This document shows positions 1 through 45,593 of a DNA stretch of 64,000 nucleotides, piece after piece. Numbering within the stretch: position 1 is the first letter of the stretch; each line of letters opens with the position of its first letter. The DNA is from Clostridia bacterium. Its GTDB lineage: Bacteria; Bacillota; Clostridia; Christensenellales; CAG-917. A program made the translations under genes and the position numbers. Below the pieces are notes generated by a model that made no database searches, was not told the origin of the DNA, and worked only from the letters and a program-made list of their open reading frames with translations. Location of the stretch: NCBI GenBank assembly GCA_036654095.1, contig JAVVSR010000002.1:65375-129374 (forward strand), in the 5' to 3' direction.

Positions 1-583
1 CTTTTTTGTTGCCAGTTTCTTTATCTACCTTACATTTTATCCCCTTGCTATCAAAAAACCGACTGGCGCGCTTGTTTAATTTTTCCATTTGCCTATCCGC
101 TTTTTTCAAATCCTTATTGTAGATACTAAGCATAATTTCGTTATTGTCGCTTGCGCTATCAATATAGTTTTGCTCAACAGCTAGTTCCAAAATACGCTCT
201 ACGGCATCTTCTAGATTTAATCCATTTAGTGATTGACCCGCAAGTAATGTTTCGGCATCTGCGTTTTTAGCACTTGCGCTTTTAACCTTGCCCGTTCTAT
301 TAAGAGTTAGCTCAATGCTTGGATTGATGTCTATATATACAATACTATCATCGGCTCTGAAATAAAAATGTCCACCCGTTAATATACCAAAAAGAAAAAC
401 AAACGTGGCTAGTACGGCAGTGACAAATATTTTCGTCCTATTTGGATTATTATGACGCTTAAGCGCAATCACGTCAGATTCGATTGGTTGCGTTATATTA
501 CTTGCAATAACTTTGTCTAAAACATTCGGAACAAATTTATCGCTGGATTTTATTAACATTTTTTCTATTTCGCGTTTTTTCAT
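1..583 (-). CDS. anti-sigma factor, RsgI-like (3' end runs off the window)
   Basis: Absent from the ORF track because there is no stop in the window. Hand translation from ATG 583..581 gives MKKREIEKMLIKSSDKFVPNVLDK...IFVTAVLATFVFLFGILTG (single TM)...VYIDINPSIELTLNRTGKVKSASAKNADAETLLAGQSLNGLNLEDAVERILELAVEQNYID, open to position 1. The ATG overlaps the sigma stop (ATGA). Confidence 0.75.
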   Translation of the reverse strand, partial: MKKREIEKMLIKSSDKFVPNVLDKVIASNITQPIESDVIALKRHNNPNRTKIFVTAVLATFVFLFGILTGGHFYFRADDSIVYIDINPSIELTLNRTGKVKSASAKNADAETLLAGQSLNGLNLEDAVERILELAVEQNYIDSASDNNEIMLSIYNKDLKKADRQMEKLNKRASRFFDSKGIKCKVDKETGNKK

Positions 584-1104
584 TGTTCCTCCTTTATAGC
601 TTTTCTTAGTTTTTTTAAAGCATTGTTATATTGCCAACGCACGGTTGCCGAAGATTTATCCAATATTGCGGCTATTTCTACCAGTTTTATTTCGCCAATT
701 GTGTGCATTAACACGATACCACTTTCATTTTCATCTAGTGTTTTAAGTGTCAGCTGAATGATTCCGCTTTCATCATTAGCTTTTAATTCATAATCTCCAC
801 CTATATAGTCATGTTCGCTAAAGTCCACAAAGCATTCTTGCTTTCGTTTTTTATAAATGTTGAAGGCCAAATTACGTGAAATCGCATGTATCCAAGCTCT
901 TGCATTTGTTCCATCGTTGTATTGACTGGCGGCACTTTGGATTTTTAAATAAGTTTCTTGCATGACATCTTCAGCCGTGGCATAATCTCGTAAAATCGTG
1001 AACGCTATGGCAAAAACAGATTTTTTAGTCGATTCATAAATGGCAACTAAAGCGGAGTTTTCGCCCCGCTTTAATTGTTGCATTTGTTGGTTCAAATCTG
1101 CCAC
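580..1104 (-). CDS. ECF-type RNA polymerase sigma-70 family factor
   Basis: 174 aa. Region 2 (DVMQETYLKI...ARAWIHAISRNLAFNIYKKR) and region 4 HTH (EIAAILDKSSATVRWQYNNALKKLR). GTG start with AAGGAGG 4 nt upstream. Confidence 0.9.
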   Translation of the reverse strand: MADLNQQMQQLKRGENSALVAIYESTKKSVFAIAFTILRDYATAEDVMQETYLKIQSAASQYNDGTNARAWIHAISRNLAFNIYKKRKQECFVDFSEHDYIGGDYELKANDESGIIQLTLKTLDENESGIVLMHTIGEIKLVEIAAILDKSSATVRWQYNNALKKLRKAIKEEQ

Positions 1105-42919: not shown

Positions 42920-43034
42920 ATTCATACCTCTTATAATAGGCTTATTTGTTATTAAGTATAACATATGTAATAAAACTAAGCAAACACATTGACAATTATC
43001 GGTAATAATCTATAAAAAATATTGCAAATGTATG

Positions 43035-43067
43035 AAAAACGGACAACTATAAATAGCTGTCCGTTTT
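43035..43067 (-). terminator. rho-independent terminator after the serpin gene
   Basis: Minus strand: ACGGACAGCT-ATTTAT-AGTTGTCCGT followed by TTTTTC. Confidence 0.65.
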
Positions 43068-43104
43068 CCATCTTAGAAGGATTATGTTTTGCGCTGTTAG
43101 AGGA

Positions 43105-44514
43105 TTAAATATTTTGTACAGCGCCAGTAAAAATAGGCACGTTATTTCGCATTATCGCATAAATAAATGGCTTGTCAAGCTCAAACTGTAATGTTTGATT
43201 TTGATTAAAGTGAACGTTTGTTGGAGCTTTGTCGTCAACTAACAACGAACCTGCATTTGCTCCCGATATGTCTAAAGAAATAAACGCTTTTGTGACAAAA
43301 TTTGATACATATAGATTACCCGCTGCAAAATTATTTAAGTTAGCTTTGTCAGCGCAAAAAATATCTGTAACACCGAAATTGCTTATTATTTTTTTCATAT
43401 CCTGATTAGAGGTAATTGAAAAAGTCGGAAATTTACAAACAAGATTACCATCAACAAGATTTTCTTGCAAACTAAATGTTGCAGCCTCTTGTAACAATCC
43501 TTTATTTAAAATATCCGAAATAGTATTGTTTCCATTTGGCTTTATCAAAACCAAATTATAATTGCCCAGCATATTTACTTTAGCCGATGTATAATTTGCG
43601 CTTTCATAAAACACTTTTCCTGTTGATTTATAAAGCAAGGCATTGGCAATTTTCGAACCTTCGTTAGGATGTGCGCTAAATTTTAAAGTTGTTTCTTCTA
43701 AATTACTCTTGTCCCAACTCGCCGAAAAATCTATTAGCGAAAATAATTTTAAAACAGATTCCATCTCGCCAATATCATTTTTTGTTCCAAACTTGCCGTC
43801 ACTGTTGTCACTGAGCCACGAGCGTATAGATTTTCCCATAACTGGTTTATTAAAGTTGCCATTAAAAATATCTGCTTTATAATTAATTGCTAATCTTTCA
43901 GCGGCAGGTTGGTTGTAATTTTTCAAGTTGTTAAACCAAGCGGAATTGTTTATAAGTAGACGCGCTTCATCAGTATTTTGGCAAAAGTAATTATAAATAA
44001 GTTTATATGTTTCGTCCGATTGCGCGCCAGCCCCTAAACAATCAACTAATTGTTGTTTTGTTTCGCCGTTGGCCATTTCCTGAAGAATACCAATCATAAA
44101 ATAAACAGCAAACGGTGAAAATACTGAATTATCTTCATTTGAAAGCAAGGTCGCTTCCGAAAGTTTGAACAGCGAATCGTTTAATCGAGCTTGCACAGTA
44201 TCATCTAGTTTAATGTTATTAGCTTGCAAATTTTTAGCATGCTGACTTCCGCTAATTTTAACCATATCGGTAGCGGTCGATATAGCAAAATCATTGTAGT
44301 TAATGTTCCGTCCTTTTATGCTTATAGCGACGCCTGTTATTGCCAAACAAATAATCAGCACGCTTGCAATGCTACTTGCCCAAAGTTTTTTACTTTTAAA
44401 TTTGTATTTATGTTCACGAGAATATGAAGTATCAACTGCTTGCTTTACACTTTCCTTTAGCATAACAGGCACTTCAATCTCGGATAATACACTTTTAAAA
44501 TCTTTATCGGTCAA
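43105..44514 (-). CDS. membrane-tethered serpin-domain protein in the anti-sigma position
   Basis: 469 aa: a 43-aa cytoplasmic N-terminus, one TM (LWASSIASVLIICLAITGVAISI), then a serpin fold (FSPFAVYFMIGILQEMANGETKQQL...FELDKPFIYAIMRNNVPIFTGAVQN). TTG start 8 nt after GGAGG and 4 nt after the sigma stop. Confidence 0.8.
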   Translation of the reverse strand: MTDKDFKSVLSEIEVPVMLKESVKQAVDTSYSREHKYKFKSKKLWASSIASVLIICLAITGVAISIKGRNINYNDFAISTATDMVKISGSQHAKNLQANNIKLDDTVQARLNDSLFKLSEATLLSNEDNSVFSPFAVYFMIGILQEMANGETKQQLVDCLGAGAQSDETYKLIYNYFCQNTDEARLLINNSAWFNNLKNYNQPAAERLAINYKADIFNGNFNKPVMGKSIRSWLSDNSDGKFGTKNDIGEMESVLKLFSLIDFSASWDKSNLEETTLKFSAHPNEGSKIANALLYKSTGKVFYESANYTSAKVNMLGNYNLVLIKPNGNNTISDILNKGLLQEAATFSLQENLVDGNLVCKFPTFSITSNQDMKKIISNFGVTDIFCADKANLNNFAAGNLYVSNFVTKAFISLDISGANAGSLLVDDKAPTNVHFNQNQTLQFELDKPFIYAIMRNNVPIFTGAVQNI

Positions 44515-44518
44515 CTTG

Positions 44519-44983
44519 CTACCTCCAGTCGTCTTTTAATTGCTCCCTAGCGCGCATCAATCTTGCCTTTACGTTTGATGGCGTTATTTTTAAATATTGC
44601 GAAATTTCCTTAACACTGTATCCATAATAATAATAAAGCAGTATAACCATTTTATACTTTTCAGGCAACGCTAATATCAATGGTAAATTGCTGTCAGGCA
44701 TTGACATTGCGGGATGATTTTCAATAAATTCATCGCCCACTTCTCGCTGTTTATACGCCTTCTTAATGTAATTTTTAGCAAGATTTTGTGTTACTTTAAT
44801 TATCCAAGCGCGCTCGTGTCGTTCGTCGTTAAAGTCGGGAGAATTGTAGCATAACTTTACAAAAAGTTCCTGCGTGATATCTTCGCTATCCGCAGCGTTT
44901 CGAGTAAATATGTAGGCTATCCGATACACTAAAGCATGATAGCTTTCATATAATGTCTCAAACTCCTTTACTTTGCCACTCAT
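44519..44983 (-). CDS. ECF-type RNA polymerase sigma factor
   Basis: Region 2 (DITQELFVKL...ERAWIIKVTQNLAKNYIKK) and region 4 (VKEISQYLKITPSNVKARLMRAREQL). ATG 44983 follows an AGAGGGA RBS; the ORF track starts at 45040. Confidence 0.88.
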   Translation of the reverse strand: MSGKVKEFETLYESYHALVYRIAYIFTRNAADSEDITQELFVKLCYNSPDFNDERHERAWIIKVTQNLAKNYIKKAYKQREVGDEFIENHPAMSMPDSNLPLILALPEKYKMVILLYYYYGYSVKEISQYLKITPSNVKARLMRAREQLKDDWR

Positions 44984-45371
44984 ATTCCCTCTACCATAAC
45001 AAACAGCGCTAAATCGTATATGGTTACATTTTATTTTCAATCCGCAAAAATCACGGCTTGAATTTAATCTTTTGTTTTTTATTTAACTTCATTGTAACAT
45101 TAATTTAAACAATATATCAAGTTTTTATTGTAAATTTTATAAACGGATTATTTTCAACTTTTTTTAAAAAATTTTCAATACATACTTAGATTGCAAATTT
45201 AGTTATAAATTCATATCGCTACTTTATTACCATATTTATTTTTATTTTTTTATTTTATAATTTTAAAGTTTTCGGTTTTCTGCTAATTTTACTAAATTTT
45301 TCATACTTCTTTTCCTTTTTTGCAATAAAAAAAGCACCAATTCATTTTGGTATTTGCGCTTACTCAAAAAG

Positions 45372-45517: not shown

Positions 45518-45593
45518 TGGTGGACGATAACGGACTCGAACCGCTGACTTTCTCCACGTCAAGAAGACACTCTACCAGCTGAGTTAATCGTCC
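45518..45593 (-). tRNA. tRNA-Val(GAC)
   Basis: 76 nt, folded by hand. Acceptor GGACGAT/ATCGTCC plus ACCA, anticodon arm TCTTC-TTGACGT-GGAGA, T-loop GGTTCGAGTCC. Confidence 0.9.

Follow-up and report, generated by a model that had tools for sequence, protein, structure and literature searches.

Two genes lie end to end on the minus strand of the window, the 64-kb stretch of DNA analysed here: one encodes an ECF sigma factor and the other, immediately downstream, a membrane-bound serpin. Together with a promoter-like motif ahead of the first gene and a terminator behind the second, they form a predicted two-gene operon in which the membrane protein is translationally coupled to the sigma factor (Table 1). 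The junction reads ...TGG AGG TAG CAAG TTG, with the sigma stop codon TAG, a 4-nt gap, and the TTG start of the serpin gene, and it bears out the layout given in a preliminary description of the locus, including the GGAGG inside the sigma 3′ end; that description left out the minus-strand orientation of both genes. The two open reading frames are in different frames, as they also are in the related loci L001 and L002. The TTG start is considered real because the N-terminus that it opens is conserved in homologues (MTDKDFKSVLSEIEVP vs MTEKDVKQAISEIEVP). The terminator folds at -24.9 kcal/mol (z -6.8; 0 of 200 shuffles equally stable) and is revealed by folding, having been overlooked by a sigma-70 promoter/terminator scanner because its T tract sits in the stem. 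The 4-nt gap, the shared ribosome-binding site, and the position of the terminator indicate the co-transcription expected of an anti-sigma gene, and the operon closes at that terminator with no second candidate anti-sigma gene within it.

Table 1. Features of the sigma-serpin operon, in window coordinates
Feature	Position	Strand	Basis
Intrinsic terminator hairpin and U tract, 33 nt past serpin stop	43032..43071	-	folding
Membrane-serpin gene, 469 aa, TTG start	43105..44514	-	read from sequence, Pfam
Serpin domain, residues 117-469	43108..44166	-	PF00079, tengpin match, AF2, Foldseek
Hinge and reactive-centre loop, residues 414-445 (P15 = G418, predicted P1 = T432)	43180..43275	-	alignment
Juxtamembrane linker, 50 aa, residues 67-116	44167..44316	-	alignment, AF2
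Predicted single transmembrane helix, residues 44-66, N-in	44317..44385	-	hydropathy scan, AF2, basic stretch
Predicted cytoplasmic tail, residues 1-43, 'type B' motif KSVLSEIEVPVMLKESVKQAV then basic stretch; proposed sigma-binding part	44386..44514	-	comparison
ECF (group IV) sigma factor, 154 aa, short 'clade B' type	44519..44983	-	Pfam, TIGR02937, sigma tree
GGAGG ribosome-binding site of serpin gene, within sigma 3′ end, 7 nt ahead of TTG	44522..44526	-	read directly from sequence
Candidate ECF-type promoter for autoregulation (TGTAAC-N17-TGTTT), 17 nt between its end and sigma ATG	45001..45028	-	motif search

The sigma gene as first called spans 44519..45040, and its product carries Sigma70_r2 (E 1e-14) and Sigma70_r4_2 (E 6e-16), scores 84.9 bits on TIGR02937 against a cut-off of 42.9, and has regions 2 and 4 only, as ECF factors do. 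The TTG at 45040 over-extends the frame across the promoter-like motif, and translation most probably begins with the ATG at position 44983 (MSGKVKEF), as it does in homologues. The protein shares 60-62% identity with the sigma factors of L001 and L002 and groups with those of L035, L052, and L076 in a clade supported at 100/100. The candidate promoter is the sole match to its motif in the window, where 0.12 would be expected, and the same motif lies 15-16 nt ahead of the sigma ATG in L001 and L002. Because the motif (TGTAAC-N17-TGTWT) was found by inspection of these same three loci, its recurrence among them is circular, and its uniqueness in the window is the only independent evidence for a promoter. 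A DNA alignment of the regions upstream of the three sigma genes mostly matched a neighbouring tRNA remnant.

The serpin-bearing protein is predicted to cross the membrane once with its N-terminus in the cytoplasm. A hydropathy scan supports one transmembrane segment (mean hydropathy 2.49) directly preceded by the basic KYKFKSKK that ends the 43-aa tail, and AF2 draws a helix over residues 43-59, in agreement with the topology originally proposed. The tail is basic and is the best-conserved part of the protein, its core being 46-64% identical within the clade compared with 34-40% for the serpin domain, and it aligns with tails of the form MNRYKKANEGIHxPExLK. Two short helices are placed in it by AF2 (residues 3-11 and 21-32), with both tail and linker at low confidence; the linker has a pLDDT of ∼50 and is poorly conserved (22-32% identity) except at S79-T80-A81-x-D83-[MIV], where A81 and D83 are invariant.

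No anti-sigma family is recognised in this part of the protein, as residues 1-116 have no Pfam or NCBIfam match even at E 10, and scans of the isolated tails against both databases gave no meaningful match. The tail carries no His/Cys motif, which agrees with the reported lack of a zinc (HxxxCxxC) anti-sigma motif, and it equally lacks the class I four-helix ASD, RsgI_N, and DUF4179. Only relatives sharing the tail match NF052375 ('anti-sigma factor'), and they do so weakly, at 14-20 bits, below the cut-off of 100, and a word-index search with residues 1-75 returned only the protein's own cluster.

The ectodomain has the serpin fold first ascribed to it. PF00079 matches residues 117-468 at E 5.9e-37 and 128.2 bits (cut-off 27) over profile positions 9-369 of 370, AF2 models the core with pLDDT 80-90 and pTM 0.71, and Foldseek matches tengpin, conserpin, and antithrombin (E to 1e-24, TM up to 0.84). 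Tengpin is also the best solved relative by sequence (E 3e-25), and the core serpin residues FSP, breach Trp, and PF...G are kept. The reactive-centre loop is drawn by AF2 as already inserted, and the best Foldseek matches are latent or cleaved forms.

The register of this loop was set by alignment to tengpin and the family. The loop is the most variable region of the protein (16-25% identity), but the predicted P1, T432, 15 positions past P15, does not vary among three clade members and is replaced by Ser in L098. Compared with an inhibitory consensus of P17 Glu, P15 Gly, P14 Thr/Ser, and P12-P9 Ala/Gly/Ser, the window hinge (D-I-S-G-A-N-A-G-S-L-L-V) agrees at P15 Gly, P12 Ala, P11 Gly, and P10 Ser and departs at P17 Ile (Lys in a 99% twin), P14 Ala, and P9/P8 Leu. 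The wider family keeps a canonical DEEG-x-x-AAA-[YF]-T hinge, of which the window protein lacks the P17 Glu, the P14 Thr, and the Ala run, yet every clade member has small or hydrophobic residues at the buried even positions P14, P12, P10, and P8. The earlier view that the hinge would suit an inhibitory-type loop is thus upheld in part: P15 Gly and the even positions agree with it, and the departure from the family's canonical form does not. Although non-canonical, the hinge still seems capable of insertion.

All other members of the window's clade (L001, L002, and L098) also have the sigma gene directly upstream, and the same sigma factor is present at the loci of all four relatives. The clade is rare. 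A scan of metagenome contigs for it gave no match, and a scan of genome contigs gave the contig of L002 alone. The window's serpin domain has an odd composition, forms a separate long branch with those of L001 and L002 in the serpin-domain tree, and has the lowest Pfam serpin score among its relatives (128 bits vs 172-308). Because the domain is long-branched and scores so low, inhibition may have been lost. The clade evolves fast and has branched off from a very large serpin family of Clostridia.

That wider family (the P0004 family, from gut and rumen Clostridia) has the same order of sigma factor, tail, transmembrane helix, linker, and serpin, with a 4-nt gene overlap. The window's serpin domain is 22-26% identical to it, and its degenerate hinge differs from the family's DEEG[CV][TE]AAA[YF]T. 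L035, L052, L076, P0137, and others in the family share the window's tail type and sigma clade, whereas most members carry another tail (KLQDAIGMIDDDLIxEA) and a longer sigma factor of another clade. A survey of serpin genes behind ECF sigma genes, proposed in the preliminary description, was performed on 80 species genomes of the wider family, with a long tail defined as at least 25 aa plus a transmembrane helix. An ECF sigma gene lies directly upstream of 52 of the 55 long-tail serpins (4-nt gene overlap in 44) and upstream of none of the 19 lipoprotein or signal-peptide serpins (Fisher p 7e-15), a comparison carrying a mild bias in that start codons were picked beside the sigma stop where a sigma gene was present; the starts are argued to be right because the tail motifs are conserved. 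The adjacency is neither peculiar to this genome nor due to chance: all relatives examined have it, and it shows a statistical link to the cytoplasmic tail.

Tail and sigma factor also evolve together. The sigma tree splits at 100/100 into two clades, and the tail motif matches the sigma clade without exception across 57 pairs, whereas the serpin-domain tree is discordant, with tail types and lipoproteins intermixed. A tail-B profile has 38 N-terminal matches, some on non-serpin proteins, and the non-serpin proteins P0133, P0148, P0150, and P0165 carry tail B, each directly behind a clade-B sigma gene. The sigma factors of L092 and L035 are 79% identical, and one has a serpin partner while the other does not. 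From the tail-sigma match, the discordant serpin tree, and the non-serpin ectodomains, tail and sigma factor appear to be the conserved unit and the serpin an exchangeable sensor. The anti-sigma role, at first proposed from position, is thereby strengthened: tail conservation, covariation with the sigma clade, and the same tail on non-serpins go beyond adjacency and, at the level of sequence comparison, support an anti-sigma reading of the window protein, whose tail very probably binds the sigma factor.

The general architecture has a precedent in SigV/RsiV of Bacillus subtilis, Enterococcus faecalis, and Clostridioides difficile, in which an ECF sigma factor is paired with an anti-sigma factor that spans the membrane once and has a short tail at its N-terminus. 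The RsiV ectodomain is a direct receptor for lysozyme, a molecule of host attack, and binding exposes a juxtamembrane signal-peptidase site, followed by site-2 cleavage. The window-type tail (Y-K-x-x-x-x-I-x-x-P-x-x-L-K) resembles what we take to be the RsiV N-terminus, a likeness that serves as a lead only. The window ectodomain is a serpin instead of a DUF4179/DUF3298 fold, with no Pfam match to the RsiV-type DUF4179 helix or DUF3298/PdaC-like domain, and the window sigma factor reaches 58 bits on the SigV model, far under the cut-off of 190. Ligand binding by RsiV is reversible, whereas the trigger proposed for the window protein would be covalent and irreversible. Another comparison is offered by the class II anti-sigma domains of CnrY and NepR, which have a very short sigma-binding part of about two helices and no zinc motif. 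The window tail is likewise short, with two AF2 helices and no zinc motif, but it has no detectable sequence relationship to these proteins, and they lack any comparable large sensor ectodomain.

The closest solved structure is that of tengpin from Caldanaerobacter (Thermoanaerobacter) tengcongensis (PDB 2pee/2pef), which, like the window protein, has a pre-serpin N-terminal region. In tengpin, this N-terminus caps a patch of helices E/F and strands s1A/s2A and thereby keeps the protein in its native state, the patch shifts when the loop inserts, and residues 40-42 of the pre-serpin region hold the metastable native state (PMC1905895). Unlike the window protein, tengpin lacks a cytoplasmic tail and begins with a lipoprotein signal peptide (lipobox NMSGC/NITGC); its hinge is canonical, and it inhibits elastase. 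Its gene sits just after genes for an ECF sigma factor and a DUF4367 membrane protein, the neighbouring sigma factor having in the latter a membrane partner of its own.

The preferred reading, to which we give about an even chance, is that the second protein is an anti-sigma factor with a serpin sensor and that the operon responds to protease attack. The tail would keep the sigma factor at the membrane, with the ectodomain serpin acting as a single-use protease trap. An extracellular serine protease would attack the reactive-centre loop near T432, the attacked loop would insert into sheet A, and insertion would reshape the surface where the juxtamembrane linker packs, the place at which the pre-serpin N-terminus docks in tengpin; a protease as the trigger is plausible, at slightly under an even chance. 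The released linker, with its conserved Ala-x-Ala-like S79-T80-A81, would lie open to site-1 cleavage, whether by signal peptidase or by some other protease, after which a site-2 intramembrane protease would liberate the tail and free the sigma factor. The extra cut is required because loop cleavage leaves the serpin body on its anchor, and that cut is purely hypothetical. Release by this cleavage route is rather unlikely in its detail. The freed sigma factor would re-induce its own operon, replacing spent inhibitor, together with any regulon. More generally, and tentatively, a suicide inhibitor may serve as a single-use receptor, in which each protease molecule that the surface serpin traps, or that cuts it, would spend one anti-sigma factor and free one sigma factor, attack would be metered, and inhibitor would be re-made in proportion to its use. 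Tail and sigma factor would then be a portable cassette, of which Clostridia would have joined two kinds to serpins repeatedly.

A different possibility is that the protein is not an anti-sigma factor and that the sigma factor merely drives a co-transcribed, membrane-anchored protease inhibitor whose tail is only an anchor. The missing anti-sigma domain would fit, and the Caldanaerobacter arrangement, in which a lipoprotein serpin lies downstream of a separate sigma/anti-sigma pair, shows that a serpin can be simply one of the products under ECF sigma control. An anchor, however, needs no 25-aa motif that exceeds the ectodomain in conservation and follows the sigma clade without exception; the same tail and sigma clade bear unrelated ectodomains, serpins with lipid or signal-peptide anchors were never found behind a sigma gene in the survey, and the operon offers no other anti-sigma candidate before its terminator, making this explanation very improbable.

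The remaining alternatives accept the anti-sigma factor and differ over its serpin. In this fast-evolving clade, the fold may no longer inhibit or sense proteases, serving as a scaffold or a binder of another ligand while ordinary envelope-stress proteolysis frees the sigma factor. The non-canonical hinge, unlike that of the rest of the family, points this way, as do the long branch, odd composition, and low Pfam score, the charged P14/P13 in the hinge of P0004, another sigma-coupled serpin, and the pre-inserted loop with its latent or cleaved matches. AF2 often renders serpins relaxed, however, so the model is weak evidence, and a degenerate scaffold fits poorly with the retained FSP, breach Trp, and PF...G, with even hinge positions that stay small or hydrophobic, and with a predicted P1 Thr/Ser kept across ∼38%-identical proteins; we regard it as unlikely. 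It is also conceivable, though improbable, that the serpin guards the anti-sigma tether by inhibiting site-1 or stray proteases, with the sigma factor freed once the inhibitor is saturated or inactivated. The same architecture supports this explanation as supports the sensor, and the long, poorly conserved, predicted disordered linker should be protease-sensitive, but one serpin would have to protect a neighbouring tether, and the sequence does not separate this arrangement from the sensor model.

Through a sigma-coupled membrane serpin, gut Clostridia may be able to detect attack by proteases. For bacteria in general, ECF sigma/anti-sigma pairs are one of the main ways of sensing the outside, but few of the signals have been identified; a serpin sensor, if real, would add proteolytic attack as a new class of signal and an irreversible, stoichiometric receptor logic. 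A literature search found no publication on an ECF sigma factor paired with a serpin-bearing anti-sigma factor, consistent with the initial statement that no characterised example was known. Work on gut bacterial serpins has treated them as secreted proteins that inhibit host elastase and pancreatic proteases. The reviews consulted do not say that many of them are tethered to the membrane and linked to a sigma factor, features that would alter the view of their regulation and role. The diverged clade of the window would show whether signalling outlives loss of the canonical inhibitory hinge.

Two relatives have split serpin genes. In L002, a 66-aa tail ORF precedes a 409-aa serpin ORF, and a naturally separate anti-sigma protein was rejected because, when aligned with L001, the serpin frame is seen to continue upstream beyond its ATG; the split can be traced to one extra base at TTT-CGG-C. 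The split in L098, in sequence from an old metagenome, coincides with A-runs and is probably a sequencing error.

The window sigma gene and the tethered serpin proposed as its anti-sigma factor meet at the junction TGG AGG TAG CAAG TTG, which bears out the layout in the preliminary description: after the sigma stop come a 4-nt gap and the TTG start codon, and GGAGG is placed 7 nt 5′ of that codon, within the sigma gene. The sigma ORF scores 84.9 bits against TIGR02937 (cut-off 42.9), and its own start, previously placed at the TTG at 45040, is probably the ATG at 44983, because homologues start at that position; the TTG probably over-extends the frame. The serpin fold recognised earlier is upheld by Pfam and by Foldseek, with serpins matched at E 1e-24. 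A TGTAAC-N17-TGTTT motif, found once in the 64-kb window (0.12 copies expected), lies 17 nt 5′ of the sigma ATG and at the equivalent place in two relatives' loci, L001 and L002, and a terminator-like hairpin with a U tract (-24.9 kcal/mol, z -6.8) lies 33 nt 3′ of the serpin stop; the pair is therefore a self-contained bicistronic operon.

Features of the sigma/serpin operon and of other elements in the window
Feature	Position	Strand	Remarks
ECF sigma ORF	44519..45040	-	Sigma70_r2 E 1e-14, Sigma70_r4_2 E 6e-16
Serpin-bearing protein, 469 aa	43105..44514	-	
Cytoplasmic tail of 469-aa protein	first 43 aa		ends KYKFKSKK
Single hydrophobic helix of 469-aa protein	residues ~44-66		
Linker of 469-aa protein	50 aa		between TM helix and serpin domain
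Serpin domain of 469-aa protein	residues 117-468		Pfam, E 5.9e-37
tRNA-Val(GAC) gene	45518..45593	-	just 5′ of the sigma operon
Second sigma/anti-sigma pair	2..1104	-	4-nt overlap
Second ECF sigma	580..1104	-	overlaps membrane protein by 4 nt
Membrane protein of second pair	2..583	-	runs off window start; non-serpin ectodomain

The window protein branches off from a very large family. Its distant relative P0004 (26% identity), for which a search at E 1e-10 gave at least 1259 relatives, also lies behind an ECF sigma gene, with a 4-nt overlap. A survey of this wider family in a single genome per species gave 527 relatives, from which 80 loci were kept, nearly all from metagenome-assembled genomes and nearly all labelled Clostridia (Oscillospiraceae, Lachnospiraceae, Acutalibacteraceae); ORFs were called, sigma and serpin profiles were built, and each serpin N-terminus was classified. 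The adjacency seen in the window recurs: among serpin genes with room upstream, a sigma gene lay directly upstream of 52 of the 55 encoding a TM helix behind 25 aa or more of cytoplasmic tail (three lacked such a sigma gene), versus none of the 19 with a signal peptide or lipobox (Fisher p 7e-15). In 44 of the 52, the genes share an ATGA 4-nt overlap; throughout the survey, the start codons chosen were those next to sigma stops. Three serpins (L014, L015, and L027) combine a TM helix with a long, basic N-terminal region but show neither the conserved tail motif nor an upstream sigma gene; they may derive from the sigma-coupled class through decay or re-purposing.

The tails fall into two types, each with its own sigma factors. 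Type A tails (KLQDAIGMIDDDLIxEA and variants) are paired with sigma factors of ∼185-200 aa, and type B tails (MNRYKKANEGIHxPExLKxxV) with sigma factors of ∼155-168 aa; the window tail, KSVLSEIEVPVMLKESVKQAV, aligns with type B. A tree of the sigma factors from 57 pairs places the six type B partners, that of the window among them, in one clade (clade B) with 100/100 support and every non-type-B partner in the type A clade, and the window sigma is 31-36% identical to type B sigmas versus 20-26% to type A sigmas by BLAST. The serpin-domain tree is discordant: it sets the window, L001, and L002 apart on a long branch of their own and intersperses the remaining type B serpins (L035, L052, and L076) with those of type A and with lipoprotein serpins. 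A profile of the six type B tails, searched against 1.84 billion representative proteins, gave 38 matches, nearly all from the protein's first residues. These include further serpins, but also four proteins with unrelated ectodomains and no Pfam match (P0133, P0148, P0150, and P0165), all of which are encoded directly after or overlapping an ECF sigma gene of 156-180 aa whose best match is clade B. The sigma factors of L092 and L035 are 79% identical, though only one of them is paired with a serpin.

Such comparative genomics, on which all functional statements about the pair rest, suggests that tail and sigma form the unit and the serpin is exchangeable, as one would expect of a sigma/anti-sigma cassette whose sensor can be swapped. 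The alternative that the tail is a mere anchor is hard to reconcile with its tracking of the sigma clade and with the same tail on non-serpin ectodomains. Type B tails also match NCBIfam NF052375 'anti-sigma factor' weakly, below threshold, which points toward an anti-sigma role and proves nothing. Full-text literature searches found no paper pairing a serpin with an ECF sigma or anti-sigma factor, and a review of gut serpins makes no mention of sigma, anchor, or operon. Against this literature, the window protein is a putative ECF anti-sigma factor with a new sensor, and the signalling logic, if confirmed, would be new.

The window clade, at only five members, is small and always sigma-coupled. 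A word-index search with the window protein returned three proteins only, its 99% twin P0001 (Clostridia MAG) and two that are 37-38% identical to it, and the exhaustive tail-profile search added P0131 (locus L098). The sigma gene lies 4 nt upstream of the serpin gene in L001, and a tail ORF appears between the two in L002 (66 aa, tail plus TM) and in L098, where an FMN oxidoreductase follows the serpin as in the window. In both cases the ORFs are taken to be a single gene. What separates them in L002 is a one-base frame change directly after the TM helix, at TTT-CGG-C (contig CAZSAC010000025.1, 2040..2085); if CGGC is decoded in a single step, the protein becomes continuous and aligns with L001, and three other CGG codons in the gene are decoded normally. 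In the old assembly that carries L098 (3001..4375, JGI 2124908002), A-runs divide the gene among three frames, most likely through homopolymer sequencing errors. The L002 record is labelled Bacteroidaceae, yet its gene order (S58 peptidase, MscS, HD, DnaG) is that of the Clostridia window. Where the window has its tRNA-Val gene, 5′ of the sigma operon, L001 and L002 also conserve a tRNA-like remnant ahead of their sigma genes. Clade sigma factors share 60-62% identity; identity to the window protein is 46-64% in the tail core (residues 1-28), 34-40% in the serpin domain, 22-32% in the linker, and 16-25% in the hinge and loop.

The compatibility of the window hinge with an inhibitory-type loop, noted earlier, is supported only in part. 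The wider family, whether tail-anchored or lipoprotein, retains the canonical inhibitory hinge DEEG[CV][TE]AAA[YF]T, and the window clade does not, reading D-I-S-G-A-N-A-G-S-L-L-V in the window, D-E-H-G-C-K-A-K-A-M-V-R in L001, and K-N-G-C-K-A-G-A-M-A-R in L002. The P15 Gly is nevertheless invariant, P14, P12, P10, and P8, which would be buried upon insertion, are small or hydrophobic in every member, and at the predicted P1 (fifteenth residue from P15), in the protein's most variable stretch, three members carry Thr and the fourth Ser. From this pattern we infer that the loop may still insert and keep a defined scissile site. The hinge of the sigma-coupled P0004 (L003), N-D-G-E-E-T-E-F-F, is charged at P14/P13, unlike that of its close relatives, so the canonical hinge may have been lost more than once among sigma-coupled serpins. 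The AF2 model is confident for the serpin core (pLDDT 80-90), with low confidence for tail, linker, and reactive-centre loop; the structures it matches best are serpins in the latent or cleaved form, and it places the hinge as a strand beside s5A, a drawing that carries little weight on the trap question because AF2 often draws serpins so.

The closest solved structure is tengpin, from Caldanaerobacter tengcongensis (E 3e-25). In tengpin, a segment N-terminal to the serpin domain caps a hydrophobic patch of helices E/F and strands s1A/s2A, elements that shift upon loop insertion, and the serpin relaxes without this segment (PMC1905895). The sole conserved linker element in the window clade is [AS]-[TS]-A-x-D-[MIV] (S79-T80-A81-T82-D83-M84 in the window, A81 and D83 being invariant), which joins an Ala-x-Ala-like site to residues reminiscent of the tengpin A-N-L-M cap. 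In the proposed mechanism, protease attack on the loop would lead to loop insertion, which would undock the linker and expose a site-1 cleavage site; intramembrane cleavage would follow, and the released sigma factor would re-induce its own operon. The last of these proposed steps are patterned on the RsiV and RsiW systems.

Tengpin is a lipoprotein (lipobox NMSGC/NITGC), whereas the window protein has a cytoplasmic tail and a TM helix. Across L093-L096 (Caldanaerobacter and Thermoanaerobacter), the tengpin gene lies just behind the genes for an ECF sigma and its DUF4367 membrane partner, at a distance of 120 nt in Caldanaerobacter relatives; the fusion could descend from this three-gene layout. 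C. subterraneus DSM 13054 has a frameshifted sigma gene and lacks most of the DUF4367 gene. The '56-aa N-terminal region of unknown function' of the 2007 tengpin paper takes in its lipoprotein signal peptide. The membrane protein of the second sigma/anti-sigma pair in the window has a short tail with FVPNVLDKVI, followed by one TM helix.
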